Positions 4,037 through 31,945 are shown, numbered from the stretch's first letter. The stretch: 64,000 nt of DNA from Chloroflexota bacterium (GCA_030607875.1 JAUWJD010000007.1:36756-100755), one strand, 5' to 3'. Notes: generated by a model not told the origin, from the sequence alone. Translations and numbers: made by a program.

Positions 4037-5686
<1,650 letters not shown>

Positions 5687-5694
5687 CTAGTCCT

Positions 5695-5790
5695 TACAGA
5701 GTACTGCGCCGAAGGTTGCTAAACGCAAATGGCCCTTCTCATACCTTGATTCGGTGAGATACGTTTAGATATCCGTGCACGAAGCAGTAG
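5695..5790 (-). repeat. Intergenic repeat family, copy C (short form, variant core)
   Basis: TACAGAGTACTGCG...TTGCTAAACG...TCTCA..TGAGA...GTGCACGAAGCAGTAG. It lies between the iorB stop and the pyrG start. Confidence 0.8.
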
Positions 5791-5855
5791 TCTTCCAATT
5801 CCTTGTTCATTGGTCGCTGATCGCAGAGTTCCCATTATCGACCACTGGCTGCTCC

Positions 5856-6467
5856 CTACACCCTTGGGCAGGGATGCGTCTTTTCCATCTCTTGTCGGCC
5901 GACCAAGAAAGCCTGTTCGTTGAGATCGGCAAACCTGGGCGGCACTCGATTGCGGACGGCTTCCAGCCATATGGGCAGTGGCACGTCGTGGAGCCAATGG
6001 GAAAGCGCACCGAGAAGCACTACGTTATTCACTCTCGTGTTGCCAAGTTCCTCAGCCAGAGCGTTGGCAGGCAGAAGGTAGTAGTTGGGTGTGAGCGCAC
6101 CCAGGACGGCCCGTAGGCGTTCGTCGTCGGGGTACTCGTCGCTGCCAGAGCTCACCGATAGAGGAGGGATGGCATATTCGTTGACCAGCACAATGCCACC
6201 CGGGCGCAGCATCTCGATGTGCCGCAAAGCCTCCAGCTTCTCAAAAGCGAGAAGAAAGTCAGCCTCACCTGGGCCAATCAAAGGGGAGTAGACTTTTATC
6301 CCCCAGCGCACCGAAGTGGTCACACTGCCCCCCCGCTGCGCCATCCCGTGCACTTCTGATTTTTTCACGTCGTACCCCGTGCGCAGCCCGACGGCGGCCA
6401 ACACATCACTGGCGAGAATGGTTCCCTGTCCTCCTACGCCAGCGAGCAGAAAATCGATCTTTGCCAT
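5856..6467 (-). CDS. iorB: Indolepyruvate:ferredoxin oxidoreductase, beta subunit
   Basis: MAKIDFLLAGVGGQGTILASDVLA...DVKKSEVHGMAQRGGSV...GEADFLLAFEKLEALR is the typical IorB signature. Confidence 0.85.
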   Translation of the reverse strand: MAKIDFLLAGVGGQGTILASDVLAAVGLRTGYDVKKSEVHGMAQRGGSVTTSVRWGIKVYSPLIGPGEADFLLAFEKLEALRHIEMLRPGGIVLVNEYAIPPLSVSSGSDEYPDDERLRAVLGALTPNYYLLPANALAEELGNTRVNNVVLLGALSHWLHDVPLPIWLEAVRNRVPPRFADLNEQAFLVGRQEMEKTHPCPRV

Positions 6468-6484: not shown

Positions 6485-8107
6485 CTACTGTCTAGTGCGC
6501 CGTGGACGAATGTTCATGCCATGCCCATAGTCATACAGGCCAGGAATGGAGACGGGTAGGGTACCTGTCGGAGAGACCTCTCCGAAGATGACTTTCGCAG
6601 CAGCTTCAGCATTCATCGCCGCCTTGCCATAGACTGCCAGGTAGGTCGTCACCTCTGGAAAACGAGCGAGGTCATAAGGGGTTCCAAAGGCCACCACGAT
6701 AAGAGGTCTGCCTGATTGCAGCAAGGCATGGACCAGGCTGGCCTGCCAGGAATCTGCGTGCCACGTACCGACAAGCAACAAGTCGGAATCTTGAGCCAAT
6801 TGAACGGCTTGCGTAAGCACTGTTTCCTTGCCTTGGGTACTTCTCAGGTCTACTGCCAACTCGACACAGGACACAGCGCGTTTTCTGACCAAATCCCCTA
6901 AAACGGTACCATCTTTGGTTGATGGAAGGACATTCGGACTGATCACCAGCACCTTACCCACCCTGGAAGGGTTGAGCGGAACCAGGTGCACCGAGTTCTT
7001 CACCAACGTTACGGCCTGTGCATGAATTGCTGCGATCTGCGCCGAGCTCTCCTGGCTGCCTATCGATCCTGCACCGGGAACCCCTGGCTGCTCAAAGAGG
7101 CCATAGTCCTCTTTTAGGCGGAGGATACGCGTCCCGGAAGCATCTACCCATGCTTCCGGGATATCTCCATTCTTCACGGCGTCGAGGAGAGTTTGGTACA
7201 TGCTGGATTGCTGTTCAAGACCTCCTGCCATCAGCACAAGATCAACCCCTGCTTGCACCGCCATGACAGCGGACTGACCTGGACTAAAGTCCTGCGTGAT
7301 GGCCTTCATGCCCATGTCATCGCTTATGATGACCCCGTCGTGGGAAAGCTCTTCCCGCAAAAGACCGCGTACGGTCCTGCGCGACAGCGTGGCGGGGATC
7401 AGCTTGCCATCATCCAGGGCTGGGTATGCCACGTGTGCGGTCATGATCATGCCCACGTGCGCTTCTATCGCCGATCGAAAGGGCACCAGTTCCGTTCTGT
7501 CCAGCTCCTCGCGCGTCTTGGGCACAACAGGCAACACCCGGTGCGAATCCGTGGGCGTGCTTCCATGGCCTGGGAAATGCTTCGCGGTCGCTATGACGCC
7601 ATGTCGTTGCAGGCTCTCAACGTAGGCTGTTCCCAAGGTCGTGACAAGATCAGGGGACTGGCCATAGGAGCGCAACCCGATTATGGGATTGAGTGGGTTG
7701 TCGTTCACGTCCAGAACGGGGGCCAAATTGGCGTTTATGCCCATGGAGCCAAGCTCTGTGGCGGCAATTCGGGCTACCTCGCTGGCCAGGCTGGGAGAAC
7801 GCGTAGCGCCTAGAGCCATACTGGCAGGCAGCTCGGTGACGCCTTGGCTGAACCGGTTGACGACTTCTCCCTCATGGTCGATGGCGACGATGAGCGGTAT
7901 CCCTGTGTCCTGCCGGGCCAGGCGTTGCAGATCCGTCGTCAACTGCCGGACCTGGGCTGGGTTTCGTAGGTTCCTCCGAAAGAGGATCACTCCGCCAACG
8001 TGGTAGTCCTGCACAAGACGTCGTGCCACTGGGCCAGCAGTCGTTCCGGGGATACCCACAATAAGCATCTGCCCGATCCTTTCTTGCAGGCTCATCTTGC
8101 TCAACAA
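6485..8107 (-). CDS. Glycoside hydrolase family 3 (NagZ-like beta-N-acetylhexosaminidase / beta-glucosidase-related)
   Basis: 540 aa. SLQERIGQMLIVG, AIDHEGG-like AIDHEGEVV, KHFPGHG and the nucleophile context VIISDDMGM, plus a C-terminal alpha/beta domain. Confidence 0.88.
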   Translation of the reverse strand: MLSKMSLQERIGQMLIVGIPGTTAGPVARRLVQDYHVGGVILFRRNLRNPAQVRQLTTDLQRLARQDTGIPLIVAIDHEGEVVNRFSQGVTELPASMALGATRSPSLASEVARIAATELGSMGINANLAPVLDVNDNPLNPIIGLRSYGQSPDLVTTLGTAYVESLQRHGVIATAKHFPGHGSTPTDSHRVLPVVPKTREELDRTELVPFRSAIEAHVGMIMTAHVAYPALDDGKLIPATLSRRTVRGLLREELSHDGVIISDDMGMKAITQDFSPGQSAVMAVQAGVDLVLMAGGLEQQSSMYQTLLDAVKNGDIPEAWVDASGTRILRLKEDYGLFEQPGVPGAGSIGSQESSAQIAAIHAQAVTLVKNSVHLVPLNPSRVGKVLVISPNVLPSTKDGTVLGDLVRKRAVSCVELAVDLRSTQGKETVLTQAVQLAQDSDLLLVGTWHADSWQASLVHALLQSGRPLIVVAFGTPYDLARFPEVTTYLAVYGKAAMNAEAAAKVIFGEVSPTGTLPVSIPGLYDYGHGMNIRPRRTRQ

Positions 8108-8216: not shown

Positions 8217-10013
8217 TCAGTCCTCTGATACTTGCGCACGGAAAAGGATAGCCCGGCGTGCACAAACCTGCGCGCAGATCTCACATCCCGTGCACAGCAG
8301 CGGATCGATGCGCGCCTTGGGCCGGCCTGTCTTTGCGTCCAGCACATCGCTTTTGGCAATGGCCGGGCAGCCCACGTGGAAGCAGAGTTCGCAGCCGTTG
8401 CAGCGCTCCTCGTTCACCCGCAGAGGCAGCCATTGCTTCCTCACCTCAGGCAGGAGCACGCATTCTCGCCGGGCGATAACCACTGCTGGCTCGTCTGTCT
8501 GCACGCAATCCTCGAGCGCCGCTTGCACCTCCTTCAGATCATAAGAGTCCACGGCGTGCACTCTCTGAATGCCCATGGCCCGCACCAGTGTTTGTAAGTC
8601 CACCTGGCCTGTCTCGATGCCCTGCAGGGTGCGGCCGGTGCCAGGATTCTGCTGATGCCCGGTCATGGCGGTGGTGCGGTTATCGAGAATGATGGTGATG
8701 GTGTTGCTCTTGTTGTAAGCCACGTTGAGCAGTGCCGGCATGCCGGTGTGGAAGAAAGTCGAGTCACCAATGACGGCTACATGGTGCTGGGCGATGCCGG
8801 CCTTGGCCACACCGTGGGCCACGCCGACGCTTGCGCCCATGCAACCACAGGTGTGTACAGCTCCGAGAGGGGGCAGAAAGGCCAGCGTATAACATCCGAT
8901 GTCACCGTTCACCACCAGCCCGAGTTTGTTGGTAACGTAGAACACGCCGCGATGTGGGCAGCCGGGACAGAGGACCGGTGGGCGTGGTGGCAGCGCACCC
9001 TTCTCTGGCTGGACAGCCTTCACCTGTGCTGACTCAGGCAGCAATCCGGCCTTGATAGCGCATTCCCGCACGATCTGCTGATCAAGCTCGCCGCAGAGGG
9101 GGAAGATGCTCTTCCCTTCCGCGGGGATGCCCAGCAGGTGCATCTCTTGCTCGATGAACGGGTCCAATTCCTCGATCACGATCAAGCGCTCCACCTGCGA
9201 AGCAAACTCCCGCAGCAGCTTGGGGGGAACTGGATAGGTCATGCCCAGCTTCAAGATCGAGGCTTGGGGGAAAACCTCTCGTGCATATTGATAGGCCACT
9301 CCGTTGGACACGATGCCCAGCGAGCGGTCTTGGAGTTCGATGCGGTTGTAGGGGAAGGTCTCGGCAAACTCGGCCAGCTTGTGGATCCGTTCTTCGATCA
9401 CCGGGTGGCGGCGGCGGGCATGGCCGGGGACCATCACGTATTTCTGGGTGTCGATGCAGTATGATGGCTTCTCGGTGCGCTCAGGTGGGCGTGTGCCTTT
9501 CAGGTCTACCACGCCGTAGCAGTGGGAAATGCGCGTGGTCAGCCGCAACAGCACTGGTGTGTCGAACTGTTCGCTGATATTCAGCGCAACGCCCACCAAA
9601 TCACGTGCTTCTTGGCTGTCAGAGGGTTCCAGACACGGCACACGGGCGAACTTGGCGTAGTGGCGGTTGTCCTGCTCGTTCTGCGAGCTGTGCATGGAGG
9701 GGGCATCGGCGCTGATGATGACCAGACCGGCTTCCATTCCGGTCATGGAGGAATAGAAAAGGCTTTCGGCGGCTACGTTGAGGCCGACGTGTTTCATCAC
9801 TGCCATGGCCCGGCTGCCAGCGTAGGCAGCACCCACAGCCACATCAAGGGCCACCTTTTCATTGGGAGACCATTCGGCGTAAACGTTGGGCATGGGAGCA
9901 AGGGTCTCTAGGATTTCGGTGCTGGGTGTGCCCGGGTAGGCGGCGGCAAGACGCACCCCGCTTTCCCATGCTCCCCATGCTACCGCTTCGTTCCCAGACA
10001 GGAACCTCTCCAC
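8217..10013 (-). CDS. iorA: Indolepyruvate:ferredoxin oxidoreductase, alpha subunit (TPP-binding, 2x[4Fe-4S])
   Basis: LSGNEAVAWGAWESGV..., the TPP motif GDSTFFHTG, and CNGCELC..CP / CTGCEICAQVC ferredoxin motifs. I moved the start to the GTG at 10013, which has GGAGG 6 nt upstream. The longer ORF start would overlap the upstream gene. Confidence 0.9.
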   Translation of the reverse strand: MERFLSGNEAVAWGAWESGVRLAAAYPGTPSTEILETLAPMPNVYAEWSPNEKVALDVAVGAAYAGSRAMAVMKHVGLNVAAESLFYSSMTGMEAGLVIISADAPSMHSSQNEQDNRHYAKFARVPCLEPSDSQEARDLVGVALNISEQFDTPVLLRLTTRISHCYGVVDLKGTRPPERTEKPSYCIDTQKYVMVPGHARRRHPVIEERIHKLAEFAETFPYNRIELQDRSLGIVSNGVAYQYAREVFPQASILKLGMTYPVPPKLLREFASQVERLIVIEELDPFIEQEMHLLGIPAEGKSIFPLCGELDQQIVRECAIKAGLLPESAQVKAVQPEKGALPPRPPVLCPGCPHRGVFYVTNKLGLVVNGDIGCYTLAFLPPLGAVHTCGCMGASVGVAHGVAKAGIAQHHVAVIGDSTFFHTGMPALLNVAYNKSNTITIILDNRTTAMTGHQQNPGTGRTLQGIETGQVDLQTLVRAMGIQRVHAVDSYDLKEVQAALEDCVQTDEPAVVIARRECVLLPEVRKQWLPLRVNEERCNGCELCFHVGCPAIAKSDVLDAKTGRPKARIDPLLCTGCEICAQVCARRAILFRAQVSED

Positions 10014-16997: not shown

Positions 16998-17915
16998 ATG
17001 GTATCATTCAAGAGTGTTTCAGTGGCGGCTCGATTCGGCTTGGTGGCGCTCGTCGCCATCGCCGCACTCATGGGGGGCTGTGCGCCAGAAGCGCCGCCGG
17101 CCACGCCAACGCCGCAGCCAACAGAGCCACAGCCCGCTGAGGGAACGCCGGCAAGTGCCCCAGCAACTGCCGTTCCCACACCAGCAGGGCCCACCGCGAC
17201 TCCACAGCCCACCATGACGCCGCGTCCTGCGGCCACACCGACCTCGGCACCTAGTAACAAACCGAACACCGTGTACATCCAGGGCGGCGAATTCATCCTG
17301 GGCAGCGACACAGGCAGTGAGGACGAAACTCCGCAGCAGGAGATGACCGTCAGCAGCTTTAACATCGACATCTACCCGGTGACCAATGCCGAGTACAAGG
17401 AGTTTGTCGATGCCAGCGGCCACAACCCGCCGCGCACCTGGAAAGAGGGCACCCATCCGGATGGGACGGCCAACCACCCAGTGATCTGGGTCAATTGGTC
17501 CGACGCCCAGGCTTATTGCGAGTGGGCGGGCAAGCGCCTGCCGACGGAGTTTGAGTGGGAAAAGGCCGCACGCGGAACCGATGGGCGCGTCTATCCCTGG
17601 GGCAACGCCTTTGACGCGGCCAAGTGCAACAGCAGGGAAAGCGGCTTGAAGGCAACCAGCGCCGTGGGCAGCTACGCGGATGGCATCAGCCCCGACGGGG
17701 TGTTCGACATGGCCGGCAATGTGTGGGAGTGGACCGCAGACTGGTACCAGGCCTATCGCGCCAGCCTCTACGAACTGAGCCGCTACGGCGAGCAGTACAA
17801 AGTGCTGCGCGGTGGTTCCTGGTTTGATGGGCAGGACTCACTGCGCAGCACGGTGCGCAAGAGCTTTGACCCCAACCAGGGCTTTAGCACCATCGGCTTC
17901 CGCTGCGCGGAGTAG
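16998..17915 (+). CDS. Formylglycine-generating enzyme (SUMF1/FGE-sulfatase) family lipoprotein
   Basis: Lipobox LMGGC, a PT-rich linker, then HPVIWVNWSDAQAYCEWAGKRLPTEFEWEKAARG...NVWEWTADW...RGGSW. Confidence 0.85.
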   Translation: MVSFKSVSVAARFGLVALVAIAALMGGCAPEAPPATPTPQPTEPQPAEGTPASAPATAVPTPAGPTATPQPTMTPRPAATPTSAPSNKPNTVYIQGGEFILGSDTGSEDETPQQEMTVSSFNIDIYPVTNAEYKEFVDASGHNPPRTWKEGTHPDGTANHPVIWVNWSDAQAYCEWAGKRLPTEFEWEKAARGTDGRVYPWGNAFDAAKCNSRESGLKATSAVGSYADGISPDGVFDMAGNVWEWTADWYQAYRASLYELSRYGEQYKVLRGGSWFDGQDSLRSTVRKSFDPNQGFSTIGFRCAE

Positions 17916-24070: not shown

Positions 24071-25969
24071 CTATTCTTCTTCGTGTCTTTCCGTTCGCCC
24101 TCGCGTAGCATCTTGGTCGCTCACGACCAACGGCGCTATGACGGGGGTGTCTTTGTGTTGTATCGCCTCCAGGATGGTTGGCTGGCCCTTTGGGTCTGAT
24201 TCGTCGGCTTGCCTGACCCAGGAGAATTTGCGCCGCAAGGTTTTGGGGTAGTACTTTTCCAACACATCGTACTCGACGCGCTGTCCCCACTGGTGCACCA
24301 CGCGCGGATCGATGTACGACTTTAGGCTGGTGGCCAGGTTCCAATCGCGCTTGATCCGGGTCACCCGCCACCGCGCCTTTAGTTTGCCCAGCGAGAGCGC
24401 TGCCCTTCCTAGCCTCTCTTGCGCGGTTGTGATCCTGCGCTCGGCGCGTGCGATCTTCCGCTGATACGAGGCCTGTTTCCTCTCCCGCTGCTTGGGCGTC
24501 TTGCAGGCGGCAATTTTCTCGCCTGCCTCTGTGCGCAGTGCGTGGAGCGCCCCTTTGTATTCCTTAACCTGCGTGCGGTACTTCTGTACCCGCTCCTCCG
24601 CCCTGTGCTTACGCTGATTGTATCTTTCGCGTCTGACCGGCCAGTTGGCAGTGGATTTCTTGGTGTGGTTGCAAAACGTGGCCGCCTCCAGGTTGGCCAT
24701 GTTCACCGCCTGCCACTTCTCGTATTCCAGATCGCTGGACTGGATGTCTGCATCGGCCAGGCTTTCCCGCACCAACTGCGTGGCGTGATGGGTGCGGAAC
24801 ACCTTGGCCGTCAGACCGGGCAGCAGCTCCGAAAGGAAAGCATTGACGTCCTGGCTGTCAATGTCGGGAAAGATCTGCGGTTTGTCACGGGTGGGATGGC
24901 GCTTGCGATTGTTCCGGTTTCCATTGGCGGGCGGTCGAGCGTTGTCGATCAGTTCCTCCAGGTTGCGGTATACTGCCTCTGGCAGTGCCACCTTCTTGTG
25001 CCACCGTATCGAGTCCTTGCCCAGGAAGCGCAACTCGGCCACACCATCGGAGTGCAGCTTGAGATGCTCAGGACGCAGCGTGGTCGCGCCTATGGTGTCG
25101 GCTTCGTCGGGGTCCTTTTCGTCGCCCACGCGCAGGCCCAGCACGTCGATCAAGTAGCAGGCCGTGGCGATCATTCTGCGCTTGGGATCCGGGTGCGACA
25201 ACTGCACCTGGATGCGCGTGCGGACTGGCTCCAACTGGTGGTGCAGTTCAATAGCCTGGTCGAATTTCTCCGCTTCCCGGGCCTGCTTGATGGGAGCGGT
25301 GTCGCTCAACCAGACGTACTTCATCTTGTTGGACAGCTTGTCCTTCCAGCGCGCCACCCACAAGCTGCCCGGCTGCCACACAATCTCCTGCCACTCACCC
25401 GCAGGCCGTGGGGCGTCCGGGCTCAGGTTCAGCGTGACGTCGCTCTGCTGCGCGCCTTCCTTCCAGCGACCCCGAAGGGGATGCCTGCCCCGCCCCATGA
25501 AGATGCCGCTGGGCTCCACCAGGTAGGTGCCCAGTTCGGTGCGCTCACCGTTGACAATGGCGTGGCCGTATTGTTCCTTCAGCGCCTCGCGCTTTGCCTT
25601 GCGCTCCGCGGCGCGCGCCTTGCGCTCCTCCTTGGTCAGGCTGGCCTTGGCTTGACGTTCGGCCTCCACCACCTGGATGGCAGGCGTAAAATCCACCTCG
25701 TCGATGGACAGCGGTGGTTCAAGACCTAACGCAGCGCTGAAATCCTGCAAAAAGTTGCGCACAAAGACGCTGTCTTCGACGTAGGGCGTGCCCTGCTTCT
25801 TGGCCCAGGCCAGGGCCATCTCCTCCTGCTTGGGCATGAGCGGCACCGGCTCCCTCCGCACCGCGAGCACCAGGCTACGTGGCTCCGGTGGAGGCGGGAT
25901 CAGCACGCCGTTGTGGATCAGTTGGGTTAGCAGAGTCGGTTCGTTGTTGTAGTTGTTCTCGGATGCCAT
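24071..25969 (-). CDS. DNA topoisomerase IB, long eukaryote-like form
   Basis: The start is set at MASENNYNNEPTLLTQLIHNGVLIPPPPEP (25969). It aligns along its length with human TOP1 core and C-terminal motifs: VEPSGIFMGRGRHP (EPPGLFRGRGNHP), ADTIGATTLRPEH (ADTVGCCSLRVEH), FLGKDSIRW (FLGKDSIRY), LTAKVFRTHHA (LTAKVFRTYNA), FCNHTK (LCNHQR) and SLKSYIDPRV (SKLNYLDPRI, catalytic Tyr). Confidence 0.9.
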   Translation of the reverse strand: MASENNYNNEPTLLTQLIHNGVLIPPPPEPRSLVLAVRREPVPLMPKQEEMALAWAKKQGTPYVEDSVFVRNFLQDFSAALGLEPPLSIDEVDFTPAIQVVEAERQAKASLTKEERKARAAERKAKREALKEQYGHAIVNGERTELGTYLVEPSGIFMGRGRHPLRGRWKEGAQQSDVTLNLSPDAPRPAGEWQEIVWQPGSLWVARWKDKLSNKMKYVWLSDTAPIKQAREAEKFDQAIELHHQLEPVRTRIQVQLSHPDPKRRMIATACYLIDVLGLRVGDEKDPDEADTIGATTLRPEHLKLHSDGVAELRFLGKDSIRWHKKVALPEAVYRNLEELIDNARPPANGNRNNRKRHPTRDKPQIFPDIDSQDVNAFLSELLPGLTAKVFRTHHATQLVRESLADADIQSSDLEYEKWQAVNMANLEAATFCNHTKKSTANWPVRRERYNQRKHRAEERVQKYRTQVKEYKGALHALRTEAGEKIAACKTPKQRERKQASYQRKIARAERRITTAQERLGRAALSLGKLKARWRVTRIKRDWNLATSLKSYIDPRVVHQWGQRVEYDVLEKYYPKTLRRKFSWVRQADESDPKGQPTILEAIQHKDTPVIAPLVVSDQDATRGRTERHEEE

Positions 25970-25979
25970 ACAAACGCAG

Positions 25980-26007
25980 ATTATAACAGTGAATCTGTAT
26001 GCGACAA
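25980..26007 (-). promoter_or_regulatory. Putative topoisomerase IB promoter; the transcript would be nearly leaderless
   Basis: The reverse strand reads TTGTCG, 16 nt ending in TGT, TATAAT. Only 10 nt separate the -10 hexamer from the ATG at 25969. Confidence 0.45.
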
Positions 26008-26017
26008 AAACACGCGA

Positions 26018-26046
26018 TTGACATTTGCGGTTATGTTGGATATACT
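26018..26046 (+). promoter_or_regulatory. Promoter of the MNT/HEPN pair
   Basis: TTGACA, 17 nt, TATACT, then GGTGAAGAG and the ATG at 26056. Confidence 0.6.
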
Positions 26047-26055
26047 GGTGAAGAG

Positions 26056-26451
26056 ATGAAAACTTGGAGAAGCATTCTAGAGCGAAAAGTGCAAAGGCAA
26101 CAGGCGCTGGAGCGGACTCTTCCCCGCGTCGTCCAGCAATTGAAAGCCCTGGGTGCACTCAAAGTGATCCTCTTTGGTTCTTTTGCCCGGGGTGACACAG
26201 GCCGGTGGAGTGACCTGGATATTATTGCGGTCATGCCCCGTTCCCTGAGCAGCCACGAATGGACAAGAAGGATCTACGCCGAGGTTGACAGAGGCATCGC
26301 CTGTGACATCCTGGCCTACAATGAAACAGATTTGCAGGAGATGCTTTCGACAAGCCGTTTCGTGCGTCGCGCTTTGAAGGAAGGGAAGGTACTCTATGAA
26401 GCGGGAAACACTTCAAGAGGCGCAGCGTTGGCTGATCCACGCCAGGGATGA
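26056..26451 (+). CDS. Nucleotidyltransferase (MNT-type) protein, putative antitoxin partner of HEPN
   Basis: LFGSFARGDTGRWSDLDIIAV is the GSxxRG...SD.D pol-beta-type NTase motif. The start is moved to the ATG at 26056, downstream of the promoter. Confidence 0.8.
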   Translation: MKTWRSILERKVQRQQALERTLPRVVQQLKALGALKVILFGSFARGDTGRWSDLDIIAVMPRSLSSHEWTRRIYAEVDRGIACDILAYNETDLQEMLSTSRFVRRALKEGKVLYEAGNTSRGAALADPRQG

Positions 26452-26812
26452 GTTCCAGGACGCCGACGAGCTGAGGCTCCGTGGGCGGTTCTACCTGGCT
26501 CTCTTCCACTTCCAGCAGGCAACGGAAAAGGCGCTCAAGGCCTTTCTCTACAGCGTCGCTGGCTCTGAGGAGATTTTCTTCACCCACTCGGTATACGAAC
26601 TGATGCAGTGGGCGAAGGAGGCTGCCCCGGAGTTTGAGCAGGTGCAGAAAGCGGTGAAGCTGGACCAGTACTACATCGCTACACGGTATCCCAACAGCTT
26701 GCCCGGAGGTGTGCCGTCCCGTTTCTACACCGATCCCGAGGAAGCGCAGGAGGCCATGGAACTGGCCCAGGCGGTGCTGGAGATGGTCGAGGGCCTGCTG
26801 AGTGAGCGATAG
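26396..26812 (+). CDS. HEPN domain protein
   Basis: 138 aa: AQRWLIHARDEFQDADEL...ALFHFQQATEKALKAFL...YIATRYPN. It overlaps the MNT gene by 56 nt. Confidence 0.8.
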   Translation: MKRETLQEAQRWLIHARDEFQDADELRLRGRFYLALFHFQQATEKALKAFLYSVAGSEEIFFTHSVYELMQWAKEAAPEFEQVQKAVKLDQYYIATRYPNSLPGGVPSRFYTDPEEAQEAMELAQAVLEMVEGLLSER

Positions 26813-26925
26813 GGATGACTGTGCTGGAGAGCCTGAAGAATCATGTGGAGATGCGTCGCACCTCAATGGCTTGAATGCAGCCCCTCGGCGCGGGGCGAAT
26901 GGCGCTTGACGGGGTGTTGTGCGCC

Positions 26926-27190
26926 TCACAACAGCGTCAGGATCTCCGGCTCGCCATCGGTCACAGCGATGGTGTGCTCAAAGTGGGCGCAGAAGCTGTG
27001 GTCTTTGGTGGCCACCGTCCAGGCGTGACGTACGCCTGCGGCTGCCCGACAGTGAGCATTGCCCCCAGGACATGGGACATGCCCGCAGGAGACTGGGTGC
27101 CATGCCACGCCCAACCCAGTGAGCCGATGGTGCTCATCGCCGCGGTGCAGCGCCAGGCAGGGTAACGCGCGGAAATGTGACGGCCCGCTG
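26926..27190 (-). pseudogene. Decayed 3' fragment of a methionine aminopeptidase gene
   Basis: One frame gives [33 protein letters not shown] (compare Map [33 protein letters not shown]). A second frame gives [27 protein letters not shown] (compare GHGIHLRAGMTYALEPMIMIGQPEVYV). There is no 5' part. Confidence 0.8.
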
Positions 27191-27249
27191 CAGGGCCAGC
27201 GCTGTAGCGTCCATTGGATTCATATGTGATCCGCACAAGAGGTAGTAGT

Positions 27250-29352
27250 ATGGATCTAGGGAAGTTGGTCGCCGGACTGGCTGTGGTTATCGGAATCATG
27301 GCCGGCATTGTGCAGGTGCTGGATTATTTGCAGAAGCAGCGGGAGAAAAAGCGCGGGGCGATAACCAGCAAGGTTATCGCCCCGCCTCCACACTCGTCAG
27401 CGATGCCCAGTAACCTGCCGCCACGAAGCGAGTTCATCGGACGGGAGAGGGAGAAAGCCTTGGTGCGGGAGGCGCTGGCCTCTCGCTATCCCATAACCTG
27501 CATTGACGGCATCGGCGGCATTGGCAAGACGGCGCTGGCTCTAGAAGTGGCCAATGAGTGCTTGCAGGCCAGCAAAGGCGAAATGCCCGCTGACGGCATC
27601 CCCACGTTCGACGGCTTCATCTGGACCACGGCCAAGGACCGCGAGTTGACCCTGAATGACGTGTTGGATGCCATCGCTCGCACCCTGGACTACCTCGGCA
27701 TCGCCCAACAGCCGCTAGAGGAGAAGCAGGAGTCGGTGCGCAGGCTGCTGCAAAGCAAGCGGTGTCTGGTCATCGTGGACAACTTCGAGACAGTGAAGGA
27801 CTCCGCTGTGCGGGACTTCCTACTGCGGCTGCCGGAGCCATCCAAAGTGCTGATCACCAGCCGAGAGCAGAAGCTGCGCCAGGCCTGGGCCGTGTCGCTC
27901 AAGGGGCTGGAACCACCAGAAGCCTTGACCCTCATCCGCAGTGAAGGCCGACGACTGGGCCTAGCCTCAATGGAGAAGGCCGAAGAGCGGGTGCTGTTGC
28001 GCCTCTACAAAGCCACCGGCGGGGCTCCACTGGCCATCAAGTGGGCTGTGGGGCAAATCAAACAGAAGGGCCAAACACTGGACAGGGTGCTAGCGGCCCT
28101 GTACGGGGCCAAGGGCGACATCTTCGAGGAAGTTTTCGCTCGCTCTTGGTCGCTGCTGACCGACGACGCGCGGCGCATCCTGATGGTCATGCCCATCTTC
28201 GTCGCTTCGGCGTCTCGGGATGCCATAGAAGCCGCTAGTGACGTACACCACTACGGCTTGGACGAGGGGCTGGGGCAGTTAGTGGAGATGTGGCTGGTGG
28301 AAGCTACCGATGAACTGGACGTGGCCAAGCGACGGTATAGCATTCACCCGCTGACGAGGGCGTATGCTGGGGCCAAGTTGAGGGAGAATGCGGACTGGGA
28401 GAGAGAAGCAAGACTGCGAGCTGCTGATTACTTCGTTCATCTCACGGAGAGGCATGGCTGGCGGTGGGATACACAAGGGATTACCATGTTCGATGTGCAA
28501 CGACTCGAACCCGAGCGAGAGAATGTGCTCGCCATAATGGACTGGTGTTACGAGACAGGCGAATGGCAAATCTTACTCTCCCTGGCCTTGGGAATGAGCG
28601 GGTTCTTAGGTTTGTGTGGCTATTGGCAAGAACGTCTGATCTATGGACAGCGAGGTGCCGAGGCGGCGGAGCACATAGGAGACGATAGGTCGTTGGCTTG
28701 GCTAAGCATGTTGATGGCCTGGGTGTACCTTAACCGCGGTAGTCACGGACAGGCGAGGTCGCTGATGAAAGAGAGCCAGGTGATCTTCGAGAGAATTGGA
28801 GCTTGGGAAGGCACTTGCGTGGCGCTCAGGTATTTGGGGAGGATCGCGCGTGAGACAGGCGCATTTGAGGAAGCAAAACAACTAGGTGAAAAAGCGCTCG
28901 AGATTGCTCGAGTGCAAAATCATAGGAATTATGCGAGCGACCTTTATCGGGATTTCGGAACACTTGCATTGGAGCAAGGACAATATGCAGAGGCCCAGCA
29001 GTGGTGCCAAAAGGCACTCGACGAAATAGAAAAACCTGGAAACGAAGAGAGATTGGGCAATATCCTCATTGGCCTTGCTAGCGCAAAGCTCATGCGGGGC
29101 GAGATCAATGACGCAGGGCGGCTGTTCGAAACGGCATTGGAACTCGTTCAGATGTTTGGTAGACAAGACAATATCGCTCATGCTAAGCACGGTTTGGCAA
29201 AAGTCAACAGCGAAAAGGGCGATCTTGGAGAAGCGCTGAAACTGGCGCGAGAGGCTCTGGGAACCTACGTGCGGCTGGAGATGCGGCAAGAGGCTAATGA
29301 GACGAAGCTGCTGGTGAGGAGGCTAGAGAAGAAGCTGTCGGTGGATAGATAA
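27250..29352 (+). CDS. STAND NTPase: N-terminal TM helix + NB-ARC + C-terminal TPR repeats (NLR-like)
   Basis: LVAGLAVVIGIMAGIVQVL (TM), GIGGIGKTALA (Walker A), CLVIVDNFE (Walker B), VLITSR, GGAPLAI and IHPLTR (MHD position), then TPR-like repeats to the C-terminus. The ATG at 27250 has GAGG 8 nt upstream. The ORF could also start at 27214. Confidence 0.85.
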   Translation: MDLGKLVAGLAVVIGIMAGIVQVLDYLQKQREKKRGAITSKVIAPPPHSSAMPSNLPPRSEFIGREREKALVREALASRYPITCIDGIGGIGKTALALEVANECLQASKGEMPADGIPTFDGFIWTTAKDRELTLNDVLDAIARTLDYLGIAQQPLEEKQESVRRLLQSKRCLVIVDNFETVKDSAVRDFLLRLPEPSKVLITSREQKLRQAWAVSLKGLEPPEALTLIRSEGRRLGLASMEKAEERVLLRLYKATGGAPLAIKWAVGQIKQKGQTLDRVLAALYGAKGDIFEEVFARSWSLLTDDARRILMVMPIFVASASRDAIEAASDVHHYGLDEGLGQLVEMWLVEATDELDVAKRRYSIHPLTRAYAGAKLRENADWEREARLRAADYFVHLTERHGWRWDTQGITMFDVQRLEPERENVLAIMDWCYETGEWQILLSLALGMSGFLGLCGYWQERLIYGQRGAEAAEHIGDDRSLAWLSMLMAWVYLNRGSHGQARSLMKESQVIFERIGAWEGTCVALRYLGRIARETGAFEEAKQLGEKALEIARVQNHRNYASDLYRDFGTLALEQGQYAEAQQWCQKALDEIEKPGNEERLGNILIGLASAKLMRGEINDAGRLFETALELVQMFGRQDNIAHAKHGLAKVNSEKGDLGEALKLAREALGTYVRLEMRQEANETKLLVRRLEKKLSVDR

Positions 29353-29537
29353 CGGAGAAGTGAGTTACAAATGAATTACCTATTACTTACCCAACCAGTT
29401 CTGCTCCACCATCACGTCGTCCGGCAGGGTGCAGCTGTGCATCGGCGACTGGACTAGGAGAGTTGGCAACACAGCCGGTCGCGAGAAATTCGTGTAATCC
29501 GCCGTTCGCCCCGCTCGACGGGGTGTCGTGCTCGTGC

Positions 29538-30317
29538 TTACGACAGCGTCAGGATCTCAGGCTCGCCATCGCTCACCGCGATGGTGTGCTCAAAGTGGGC
29601 GCAGAGGCTGTGATCCTTGGTGGTCACCGTCCAGGTGTCGCGCTTGACGTACACTTCCGGTTGCCCGATCATGATCATCGGCTCCAGCGCATAGGTCATG
29701 CCCGCGCGCAGATGGATGCCATGCCCACGCTTGCCCCAATTGGGTATCTGCGGGTCTTCGTGCATCTCCCGTCCCACGCCATGGCCAGTATACTCGCGCA
29801 CCACGTTGTAGCCGTGGCGCTCGGCGTGTGCCTGGATGGCGGCAGACACGTCCCCCAGTCGATTGCCCACGCGCGAGGCCTCGATGGCCTTGTACAGCGC
29901 CTCCTCGGTGACACGCAGCAAACGCTCCGCCTGCTCGGAGATGTGGCCCACACCGATGGTGAAAGCAGCGTCGCCGACAAAGCCCTGGTAGATGCAGCCA
30001 CAATCCAGGCTGATGATATCGCCTTCCACCAACACACGACGGCGGCTGGGGATGCCATGCACCAACTCATCGTTGACGCTGGCGGTGATGGTGGCTGGGT
30101 AGGGGCGAGCGGAACGCCGGGGGCTGGGGTTGGGGTAGCCCAAGAAGGCAGGGACGGCACCGTGCGAACGGAGCACGTCCTCAGCGATGGAGTCCAGTTC
30201 AGCGGTGGTTACGCCGGGGTGCACAGCGCGGCGCATGGCCTCCAGGGCCAGGGCGTTGATGCGTCCTGCCTCACGCAGCAGAGCGATTTCTTCGCGTGTC
30301 TTGATGATGATGGCCAC
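29538..30317 (-). CDS. map: Methionine aminopeptidase, type I
   Basis: 259 aa: MAIIIKTREEIALLREAGRI..., the metal-ligand contexts DIISLDCG, GHGVG and EPMI, and a C-terminal HFEHT. Confidence 0.95.
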   Translation of the reverse strand: MAIIIKTREEIALLREAGRINALALEAMRRAVHPGVTTAELDSIAEDVLRSHGAVPAFLGYPNPSPRRSARPYPATITASVNDELVHGIPSRRRVLVEGDIISLDCGCIYQGFVGDAAFTIGVGHISEQAERLLRVTEEALYKAIEASRVGNRLGDVSAAIQAHAERHGYNVVREYTGHGVGREMHEDPQIPNWGKRGHGIHLRAGMTYALEPMIMIGQPEVYVKRDTWTVTTKDHSLCAHFEHTIAVSDGEPEILTLS

Positions 30318-30496
30318 CCTCGTCGCCTCCCTCGCGTTTTGTCAGCACAGTCCAAGGCGCTGCGCCAAGCCTGTGGAGTATACCGCGAGTTGAGCAGGCC
30401 GTCAATGGGGGCCGACAAGACACGGCGTGATCGCCGAAGGAGTCAGAGGACTCGGCCAGACTACGCCGAAGGAGTGGCACAATGGAGGGGCTGTGG

Positions 30497-31303
30497 TTAG
30501 TCTTCCAGGAAGCAAAGCAGTCCAGCGACAATGCCCTCGGCCAGCACGTCCGGACGATTGACCAGGATGTCGCGATCGGCGCCCAGGAAGCCCATCTCGA
30601 TAATCGCGGCCGGCGTCTGGGGGTCAACCTCGAGAAAGGCATGATATCCGTGCATATCGGGCGTGATGCTGTAGTCGTGCCGTGGCAACCCCGTGATGCG
30701 TCCGTACTCCTGGTAGAGACATTCCACCAGCACATCCTCGATCTCCGGTATGGCGCTGAACGAAACCCGGGCTACTTTGAACCCACTGGCTTCCGGTACG
30801 TCGCAGGCGTCCGCGTGGATGGATAGAAATGCATCAGCACGGTAGCCGCTTAATCGATCATCGTATTCTTCCAGCAGGTCAACCTCGTAGCCCCGGTCGC
30901 GCAGTGCAGCCACCACTCTTTGGGAAACCGCCAGGTTGATGTCCACCTCGCGCAATCCATCGGGGCAGACTGCGCCCGGGTCATTCTCTGGCCCAGAATG
31001 CCCGGACAGGATGCCTAGGCGTTTTGGTTTCGGCGTGGGGCTGAGCGTAGGTCCGCCGGGCGTAATGGTAGGCCCCGCAGTTGGGGAACGCGTAGGTGTC
31101 GGAGATTGTGTGGTTGTGGGAACAGGTGTCCCGGTGGCGGAACCTGGTGATTCCCGGCGCCGGGCGGCGAACACAGCCAGCGCCACAGCAGCCACCGTAA
31201 CGACCAGCAGCAAAAGCTGCACCTGGCGCACCAGGCAGCCGATCCGTTTCCGGCGTAGCCTCTGTCCTTTTGTGCTGCGGCGGACCTTGGACATCTGTGA
31301 CAT
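30497..31303 (-). CDS. N-acetylmuramoyl-L-alanine amidase (Amidase_3 family), membrane-anchored
   Basis: A TM segment, a PT-rich linker, then ILSGHSG...DPGAV...EVDINL...FLSIHADA. Confidence 0.85.
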   Translation of the reverse strand: MSQMSKVRRSTKGQRLRRKRIGCLVRQVQLLLLVVTVAAVALAVFAARRRESPGSATGTPVPTTTQSPTPTRSPTAGPTITPGGPTLSPTPKPKRLGILSGHSGPENDPGAVCPDGLREVDINLAVSQRVVAALRDRGYEVDLLEEYDDRLSGYRADAFLSIHADACDVPEASGFKVARVSFSAIPEIEDVLVECLYQEYGRITGLPRHDYSITPDMHGYHAFLEVDPQTPAAIIEMGFLGADRDILVNRPDVLAEGIVAGLLCFLED

Positions 31304-31460: not shown

Positions 31461-31598
31461 CCGCTACCACCCATCACCCACTACCCGCTACCCACAACCC
31501 ATCCTCCCTTTTTTCGGCAAACGAACCCATTTTTCACAAATGTACATCGTCCCCAGCCACCCACTACCCACTACCCATCACCCACCACCCACTACCCA
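31461..31598 (+). repeat. Two blocks of tandem heptanucleotide repeats (CCCAYYA)n separated by about 45 nt
   Basis: Block 1 (31461-31504) reads ..CCCATCA CCCACTA CCCGCTA CCCACAA CCCATCC. Block 2 (31551-31598) reads ..CCCACTA CCCACTA CCCATCA CCCACCA CCCACTA CCCA. The + strand has almost no G here. Confidence 0.85.
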
Positions 31599-31945
31599 TG
31601 ACTAGTCCCAAGACCGTTACTGCGAAGCGTCCCGCTCCTGGCGGGGCTGCCGCAGGTCCCGCCATCACTTGGGCGGGGCGAAGCGTCTCGCCCGGCAGGT
31701 TGGCGAGGCTGCGAAGCGTCTCGCCGCGGTCTGGCGAGGCCAGTAAACAGCTTGCCGCCAACCGCCGCAACGCCCAGCGCTCCACCGGGTCCCGCACCCC
31801 CGATGGCAAAGCTCGCAGCCGCTGGAACGCCCTCAAGCACTCCCCGAACCCTCTTTCTCTCCCCTCACCTGCGGCGAGACCTTTGACAGTTCTAGGAGAG
31901 GAGGGGGCGCAAGCGCAGGGACGCAGAAGAAGGTGAGGGCGCAAT

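Follow-up and report, generated by a model that had tools for sequence, protein, structure and literature searches.

Some genomic islands, among them e14 at icd and those that target tRNA or tmRNA genes, integrate at a gene's 3' end and supply a substitute end for that gene. In plants, the N-terminal helices of coiled-coil (CC) NLR proteins act on the membrane after NB-ARC oligomerization. Among bacterial NLR-like proteins, the Avs proteins have the same tripartite logic as the protein described here, and transmembrane (TM) modules are found among the N-terminal architectures of Avs7 relatives (PMC13581612). EAD7 is one of the effector-associated domains found in NTP-dependent conflict systems of multicellular prokaryotes (Kaur, Burroughs, Iyer, Aravind, eLife 2020, PMC7159879), and these systems have membrane-proximal components on a single conserved TM helix, e.g. 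EACC1 (PMC7159879). STAND sensors diversified by a diversity-generating retroelement (DGR) have also been described in multicellular bacteria (PMC10907252). Here, a STAND gene was analyzed in a stretch of 64,000 nucleotides (nt) from a Chloroflexota bacterium (GCA_030607875.1 JAUWJD010000007.1:36756-100755), hereafter called the window. This gene is part of the accessory DNA that fills a 3.5-kb variable slot (about 25989-29480) between the core genes map and topoIB. We are highly confident in the joint claim that the gene belongs to the NB-ARC/TPR STAND family and is accessory.

The gene and its parts, in window coordinates, are as follows:

27250..29352, + strand: STAND gene with TM, NB-ARC and TPR parts, 700 amino acids (aa), from an open reading frame (ORF) with a ribosome-binding site, Pfam and an AlphaFold2 (AF2) model
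27256..27354, + strand: N-terminal hydrophobic helix, codons 3-35, from hydropathy and AF2
27412..28374, + strand: nucleotide-binding oligomerization domain (NOD), consisting of a P-loop nucleotide-binding domain (NBD), a helical domain (HD) and a winged-helix domain (WHD), codons 55-375, host-like in composition
28375..29349, + strand: hypervariable TPR sensor region, codons 376-700, AT-richer than its surroundings
29353..29479, no strand: AT-rich spacer from the STAND stop codon to the conserved map flank, from the composition profile

The ORF starts with ATG, with AAGAGG just 5' of it, and the same MD... N-terminus begins all the STAND homologs. On the 712-aa version of the ORF, on which Pfam positions were numbered, NB-ARC (PF00931) was found at aa 94-291 with 52.3 bits against a curated cut-off of 23.5, and TPR_12 and TPR_MalT scored 87 and 54 bits. 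Pfam gave no match to a NACHT-type NTPase; the NTPase is NB-ARC. The motifs GIGGIGKT (aa 87-94), LVIVDNFE (173-180), LITSR (201-205), GGAPLAI (257-263) and IHPLTR (365-370) form a complete series in the order P-loop, Walker B, sensor-I Arg, GxP and His after the winged helix. All five fall in invariant or near-invariant columns of the family, and K93, D177, R205, P260 and H366 are invariant across 75 homologs. The AF2 model built on these 75 homologs had a predicted local distance difference test (pLDDT) score of 88.3 and a predicted template modeling (pTM) score of 0.76. It runs from an N-terminal helix (aa 3-35) through a disordered linker (aa 36-55) and the NBD, HD and WHD to 15 TPR helical hairpins, which take up about 320 aa and reach the C-terminus. 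The top Foldseek match of this model in the PDB was the archaeal STAND-TPR protein PH0952 (6mfv, E 2e-17), with further matches to Avs3, plant resistosomes, Apaf-1 and CED-4. Among solved structures, AfsR (PDB 8k60/8jke, E 4.5e-25) and PH0952 were the nearest in sequence. No enzymatic or DNA-binding domain was found in Pfam and NCBIfam scans or in the AF2 model. A reading made from the sequence alone (the sequence-only reading) had proposed a STAND protein with a single N-terminal TM helix, NB-ARC and TPR repeats; Pfam, with PF00931 above its cut-off, hydropathy, AF2 and Foldseek agree with this proposal.

The same reading had remarked on an AT-rich 3' third of the gene, and the GC content was indeed 0.49-0.55 across 28450-29500 compared to about 0.60-0.65 nearby. 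At third codon positions (GC3), the TPR half had a GC content of 0.580, the half with the TM helix and the NOD 0.768, and 14 neighboring genes 0.752 ± 0.046, which places the TPR half about 3.8 standard deviations under the neighboring genes. The GC3 break coincides with the junction of the NOD and the TPR region. Apart from this contig, one Logan contig with the same context was the only place where the exact STAND protein was found.

The slot and its borders contain the following features, from topoIB to map:

24071..25969, - strand: eukaryote-type topoisomerase IB gene (topoIB), the far slot border, from Pfam Topoisom_I_N, Topoisom_I and Topo_C_assoc
25980..26046, no strand: divergent promoter-like sites for topoIB (-) and MNT (+), from a motif scan
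26089..26451 and 26396..26812, + strand: MNT and HEPN, overlapping ORFs, from Pfam NTP_transf_2/Polbeta and HEPN
26903..27128, - strand: map', a decayed copy of the last ~68 map codons and ~25 nt of 3' flank, from blastn
29480..29537, no strand: 58 nt 3' of map that relative L090 also has; at the left edge of this stretch, homology to relatives stops
29538..30317, - strand: intact type I methionine aminopeptidase gene (map), from TIGR00500 (308 bits) and Peptidase_M24

Relatives of the locus were collected by a metagenome scan with map. They come from uncultured Anaerolineae/Chloroflexota, and their map genes are 80-84% identical to that of the window. In L091, L092 and L093 (map 80-83% identical), map is followed on the same strand by topoIB after 200-460 nt, which is an empty site, and MNT-HEPN is also missing between the two genes. 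L092 is otherwise syntenic with the window (pheT-pheS-amidase...map-topoIB). On the map side, homology to the relatives ends at about 29480-29540, and on the topoIB side it starts again at about 25988; about 3.5 kb in the slot of the window are therefore extra DNA, with MNT, HEPN, the map remnant and the STAND gene lying in that order from topoIB to map. These empty sites are at the level of genus or family, not of strain, which is a point against the overall explanation given below. An additional scan of genome contigs with the amidase gene, aimed at empty sites, was set aside because the map-amidase adjacency was not conserved: the best representative was 71% identical and most of what was found was rearrangement.

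Two other relatives carry a DGR in the same slot, with bAvd and a reverse transcriptase (RT) in both L005 and L090 and a NACHT-FGE target in L005 (L005 19-4422, comprising the NACHT-FGE target, RT and bAvd; L090 1448-3456). L092 retains a bAvd remnant in its slot at 7218-7454. L005 and L091 are 95.6% identical at the nucleotide level over 10.85 kb and diverge 73 nt past the map stop codon. Since relatives carry a different cargo at the same site, the site is a hotspot. The element in L005 is similar to STAND sensors of multicellular bacteria that are diversified by a DGR (PMC10907252). A stand-alone protein with an FGE-sulfatase domain (305 aa, 16998..17915, + strand) in the window has a C-terminal part like the variable FGE of the L005 DGR target (70% over 66 aa), and no RT or Avd was seen in the window near it.

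The STAND gene lies between the intact map gene and its decayed tail copy, as the sequence-only reading had noticed. In gapped blastn, 26903-27110 aligned with 29512-29730 at 80% identity over 220 columns (E 4e-50 within the window). The copy had been put at about 90 codons, to about 27190; it is real, but this length was slightly overstated, since only about 68 codons, to about 27128, are significant. The protein-level match covers map aa 191-258 and is split by a frameshift over two frames. About 25-30 nt past the stop codon are common to both copies, as had been claimed. The identity of map' to map is 90% over the last 102 nt, followed by a 7-nt gap and then 73% over 84 nt. The changes of map' itself are very unevenly spread: the last 102 nt have about 4-5, and about 20 and two indels fall in the 84 nt that follow. 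The C-terminal residues of map' equal the clade consensus, and the intact map has three derived residues there (A>T, T>S and L>S). Over the last 102 nt, map', the intact tail and the L092 tail are nearly equidistant (90, 88 and 87%). In the next block, map' and the intact map share derived states without a counterpart in any relative, such as the His codon in GHG, and both are therefore of the same lineage. A consensus tail in map' together with a derived tail in the intact gene fits a displaced original end plus a replacement end. A second map paralog as the source of map' was ruled out by the 90% nucleotide identity to the resident tail, the shared lineage-specific states and the absence of a second map there in relatives; none of the relatives compared has a full second map at the left position.

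We give a Campbell-type origin of the map duplication an even chance. The slot would have been filled in at least two steps, with MNT-HEPN arriving first. A circular piece of ~2.6 kb, containing the STAND gene and a map-tail homolog, would then have undergone a single Campbell-type crossover with the resident map tail, producing an intact map with a replacement tail and leaving the displaced tail fragment on the far side. The candidate crossover point is the 7-nt gap (about 27026/29638). Downstream of the gap, map' would be the former functional end and hence clean, and upstream of it the never-translated mimic of the element and hence decayed; a crossover at this point would give the uneven decay. 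The recombinase that acted would no longer be present.

Several observations weigh against this origin. The 58 nt of map flank shared with L090, where L090 1054-1237 aligns with window 29654-29480 in blastn, fit equally well a wholly native intact map and an imported or duplicated map'. No recombinase, att core or circular form was seen. Neither between the map repeats nor among the annotated neighboring genes was there an integrase, transposase or recombinase; the sequence-only reading had likewise stated that no integrase remains. Flanking duplications were sought around family members at three other loci and none was found, so the map duplication is not the general way in which the family moves. 

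A search for conserved cassette ends 5' and 3' of seven STAND copies matched only the ends of the coding sequence. Rfam (at gathering score) and tRNA scans of the whole window found nothing, which leaves no tRNA or tmRNA gene as a target and no RNA element of a known kind. For an attC site 3' of the STAND gene, no search aimed at attC was made; there was no Rfam match in the window, and the spacer 29353..29479 showed no significant secondary structure. The sequence-only reading had also taken the gene for a single-gene cassette of about 2.3 kb inserted in the map 3' end. Its accessory nature stands with the empty sites of L091, L092 and L093, but the block measures 3.5 kb, which does not agree with a clean 2.3-kb cassette; the relatives lack MNT-HEPN as well, and the remnant lies mid-block.

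The duplication may instead not be an integration scar at all, which we consider somewhat unlikely. It could have arisen at a fragile hotspot, either by local illegitimate recombination or by partial tandem duplication, or map' could be an internal passenger of one 3.5-kb donor block with MNT-HEPN and the STAND gene. The missing integrase, att core and element ends agree with such an origin, as do the position of map' in the middle of the block and not at the border with the core flank, the native-like 58 nt beside the intact map, the repeated rearrangement of the site in relatives and the absence of duplications at other insertions of the family. However, a direct repeat of a gene 3' end around foreign DNA is the classic product of a single crossover, and the uneven decay of map' with its consensus tail is explained by a crossover at the 7-nt gap and not by uniform decay of a simple duplicate. 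Directly past the ~25-30 nt that both copies have after the stop codon, a 24-nt inverted motif (79% complementary) links the map' flank at 26881-26904 with a small GC-rich motif 3' of the intact map at 29500-29523. This pair was considered as a recombination site and dropped since it folds no better than shuffled sequence.

The protein search returned 782 relatives among 8,000 scored candidates. This family of single-pass membrane-anchored NB-ARC/TPR STANDs is large, uncharacterized and found mainly in uncultured Anaerolineae/Chloroflexota. Across 75 full-length members, the mean pairwise identity was 72-73% for the NOD and 28% for the TPR region. The NOD of the window protein is 85-87.5% identical to that of many proteins, and its TPR region is at most 42% identical to anything found. 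Judged on these sequence comparisons, the combination of a conserved NOD and a hypervariable TPR region fits a putative immune-receptor-like (NLR-like) sensor. Sisters at 44-50% identity have the N-terminus swapped for EAD7, an Mrr-type nuclease (Mrr_cat), a coiled coil, or a TM helix plus EAD7, so that nuclease or EAD modules stand where the window protein has its helix.

The N-terminal helix is a conserved module (G-I-x-A-G-I-V-Q-V-L-D-Y-L-Q-K-x-R-E-K-K) with a Kyte-Doolittle mean of 2.55 over the 19 aa starting at residue 6. Its C-terminal flank, QKQREKKRG, has a net charge of +4; by the positive-inside rule, this suggests an N-out/C-in topology with the NOD and TPR region in the cytoplasm. 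Among the 120 best homologs, 102 have an N-terminal hydrophobic segment and 60 the motif G-x-x-Q-V-x-[DQE]-[YF]. The architecture is therefore common. A search with the first 40 residues alone against 1.84 billion representatives found the same helix on the NACHT-like protein P0129 and on the P-loop STANDs P0124, P0125 and P0127; the helix is thus a portable module. The description of the protein as an unusual minimal NLR is not supported, given the size of the family, the frequency of the helix and its portability. No match to EACC1 or to other named TM-module Pfam models was found in the window protein. A Pfam match of P0079 to the viroporin Vpu (E 7e-4) was under the cut-off, was put down to composition and was not used as evidence.

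As an overall explanation, we lean toward a single-protein conflict sensor that would act at the membrane on oligomerization. The cytoplasmic TPR region would bind a protein derived from an invader or from stress, and NTP-dependent oligomerization of the NOD would cluster the N-terminal helices, in which a small-xxx-small motif and the residues Gln, Asp and Tyr are conserved. Once clustered, these helices would perturb or permeabilize the membrane, leading to growth arrest or abortive infection. Judging from the sequence, a conflict or immune role of the protein is somewhat probable. That the helix itself is the membrane-acting effector is a tentative proposal to which we give less than an even chance. 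We regard a bolder version as quite doubtful, namely that the helix (G-I-x-A-G-I-V-Q-V-L-D-Y) is a minimal self-sufficient death effector that is portable across NB-ARC, NACHT and other STANDs, that a ligand-driven ring of helices forms an ion-conducting pore, and that sensor swapping at the NOD/TPR junction gives specificity. If this were true, the family would be the simplest known NLR and a bacterial counterpart of the plant resistosome channel.

Some findings speak against a conflict sensor with its own effector. Of the PADLOC-DB v2 models, none of the STAND, Avs1-5 or AVAST families matched the protein and only the generic TPR model PDLC01169 did; the gene is thus not assignable to a known Avs type, and the PADLOC comparison suggested in the sequence-only reading gave it no support. 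Searches of viral contigs and plasmids returned only distant STANDs of at most 28.5% identity and no close relatives, so there is no sign of phage or plasmid carriage. Across the family, identity in the TM segment is only 43%, with at least three sequence types. In addition, P0079 and P0086 combine the same TM helix with EAD7, which suggests that the helix may be a mere anchor and the effector recruited in trans.

An anchor-only role, the main rival for the mechanism, is, in our view, rather unlikely. The helix would then tether a cytoplasmic NOD-TPR sensor, e.g. of phage entry or envelope stress, the output would come from proteins recruited in trans or from scaffolding, and the role could be signaling or development in a filamentous bacterium and not necessarily immunity. 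EAD7, which P0079 and P0086 join to the helix, is an adaptor thought to recruit effectors (PMC7159879), the TM sequence is far less conserved than the NOD (43% vs 72%), and AF2 modeled the helix at low confidence (pLDDT about 55). However, the 700-aa form has the helix alone before the NOD, in the place held by nuclease or EAD modules in sisters, and no partner gene was conserved with the STAND gene in seven contexts including the window. The small-xxx-small spacing of the helix and its polar residues (Q-V-L-D-Y) are also kept, and, as swappable effector modules do, the helix turns up again on unrelated STAND clades.

It is very unlikely that MNT, HEPN and the STAND gene are one three-gene system expressed from the MNT promoter, with the HEPN RNase as a STAND-controlled effector. 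The three genes lie on the same strand, the sole strong promoter-like site is 5' of MNT (none was found directly 5' of the STAND gene), there is no convincing terminator between HEPN and the STAND gene, and both units are missing from the empty sites of the relatives. Yet MNT or HEPN lay beside the STAND gene in 0/6 homolog loci, two of which have an unrelated RelE/Phd-like pair and the others none, and HEPN and the STAND gene are 437 nt apart, with an antisense pseudogene in between. As toxin-antitoxin (TA) modules, MNT-HEPN pairs are self-contained, which also counts against a three-gene system. Finally, a transcription regulator of the AfsR/MalT type is extremely unlikely: AfsR (8k60/8jke; NCBIfam AfsR, 67 bits) and MalT-like TPR regions are the closest characterized sequence relatives, but the 67 bits compare to a cut-off of 1430, the match is restricted to NB-ARC and TPR, and neither Pfam nor NCBIfam found a SARP/BTAD or LuxR helix-turn-helix (HTH) domain, because the 54 residues before the NOD are the TM helix and the disordered linker and the C-terminus is TPR to its end; no DNA-binding domain of transcription-regulator STANDs had thus been missed.

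The six homolog loci that were examined represent four kinds of site, namely aroE|aroC, radical-SAM|gatB, a defense island and one without assignment, and they have no partner gene in common with the window. The following contexts were seen:

P0005: between aroE and aroC
P0006 and P0035: after a radical-SAM gene, next to gatB; P0035 is split in two ORFs
P0059: after aroE and beside a RelE/Phd-like pair; an IS110 element interrupts the gene
P0064: in a defense island with SNF2/NOV_C, nSTAND3-HEAT, DUF1156 and DUF499

Members of the family thus stand alone and are patchily distributed. Decayed STAND copies occur among them, one in two ORFs and one interrupted by IS110. A block of a RelE/ParE-like toxin, a Phd-like antitoxin and a STAND gene was seen at two different chromosomal loci (L086 6916-9627 and L173 377-2102), with 83.6% nucleotide identity and TA proteins that are 87-91% identical. 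The 37 nt at 6820-6856 of L086, 5' of the P0006 gene, are 78% identical to the HHYALDEGLGQL-coding part inside the gene (8502-8538) and could be what is left of a STAND copy that this locus had earlier.

One further structure was found inside the STAND gene of the window:

27353..27385, no strand: perfect hairpin with a 14-bp stem in linker codons 35-46, dG -35.9 kcal/mol, z -6.5

The hairpin sits in the codons of the disordered linker (RGAITSKVIAPP). It was sought in six homologs and present in none, and it is specific to the window copy. Read on the - strand, it looks like an intrinsic terminator with a T-run. Its left arm appears to have been converted to the right arm, as in quasi-palindrome correction.

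On the topoIB side of the slot, the promoter-like site of MNT (TTGACA-17-TATACT, 26018-26046, + strand) matches at 11/12 positions, and that of topoIB reads TTGTCG-16-TATAAT on the - strand. MNT gave weak matches to PADLOC PDC-S09. The topoIB product is full-length (632 aa), and the gene is a conserved core gene beside map in relatives (L091 10981-12813, L092 7543-9390, L093 1647-1970). According to PMC2621148, only a shorter version of TopoIB was known from bacteria, and long forms from eukaryotes and Thaumarchaeota. The gene order around map varies. In the window, the amidase gene lies directly 5' of map (30317-30497). L092 has a response regulator and small zinc-ribbon ORFs between the two genes (4200-6346), and L005 and L091 have enolase-DRTGG-ACS 5' of map, genes that are found at 44-48.5 kb in the window. 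The spacer between the amidase gene and pheS (31476..31599) is strongly C-skewed and contains the tandem 7-nt repeat ACCCACT in about 9 copies and two blocks, also with 14- and 21-nt periods. A 33-nt tandem repeat follows at 31678-31740.

The family is large and compact, with 700 aa in one gene, and has the hallmarks of immune receptors, which makes it a tractable candidate for the question of whether one TM helix can be the output of an NLR-like switch. Related filamentous Chloroflexota place different NLR-like conflict cassettes in the same slot beside the essential gene map, a TM-NB-ARC-TPR gene in one case and a DGR-diversified NACHT-FGE gene in the other. The duplicated gene tail would record one insertion into the slot. 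Current views are not overturned by these findings, and known themes are extended to an under-sampled phylum.

Compared to gene-3'-end islands, the window has the same direct repeat of a gene tail bracketing foreign DNA, with an intact gene that has a variant tail and a displaced tail that decays. It differs in that the element is without an integrase, has one gene and ~2.6 kb, and MNT-HEPN separates the displaced tail from the core flank. PH0952 (6mfv) and AfsR (8k60) are solved NB-ARC-TPR STANDs; the best match by fold is PH0952, and over the NOD and TPR region both proteins rank with the best matches by sequence. AfsR has a DNA-binding SARP/BTAD output module, whereas the window protein has a TM helix in that place. 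The bNACHT defense proteins differ from the window protein, whose NTPase is NB-ARC, although the TM module does occur on the NACHT-like P0129. NLRs with amyloid signaling motifs (BASS/Bell pairs, Dyrka et al.) also differ, since the window protein begins with a hydrophobic helix and no adjacent partner was found in the seven contexts.

The plant CC-NLR resistosomes (ZAR1, Sr35, NRC) share the NB-ARC fold, which matches 6j6i, 7xc2, 9fp6 and 9h2l, and an N-terminal helix as the candidate membrane-acting part. This likeness is one of logic only, as the window helix is predicted to be constitutively inserted in the membrane, a four-helix CC is missing, and the sensor consists of TPR instead of leucine-rich repeats. 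With the EAD conflict systems (PMC7159879), the window protein shares the filamentous Chloroflexota hosts and, through its sisters at 44-50% identity, EAD7 on the same NB-ARC-TPR chassis; in contrast, it has no EAD or linked effector gene itself. A likeness to the Avs and other bacterial NLR-like proteins lies in the tripartite layout, the TPR-type sensor, the stand-alone gene and the swappable N-terminal modules (nuclease, EAD, TM). A conserved NOD, a highly variable sensor and one homolog in a defense island are also shared. The window protein differs in its NB-ARC-type NTPase, its small size of 700 aa, a single helix as the sole N-terminal module and its uncultured Chloroflexota hosts. The window gene is instructive but not exceptional: it is a bacterial NLR-like STAND with a swappable N-terminal module, of a kind that is already known.

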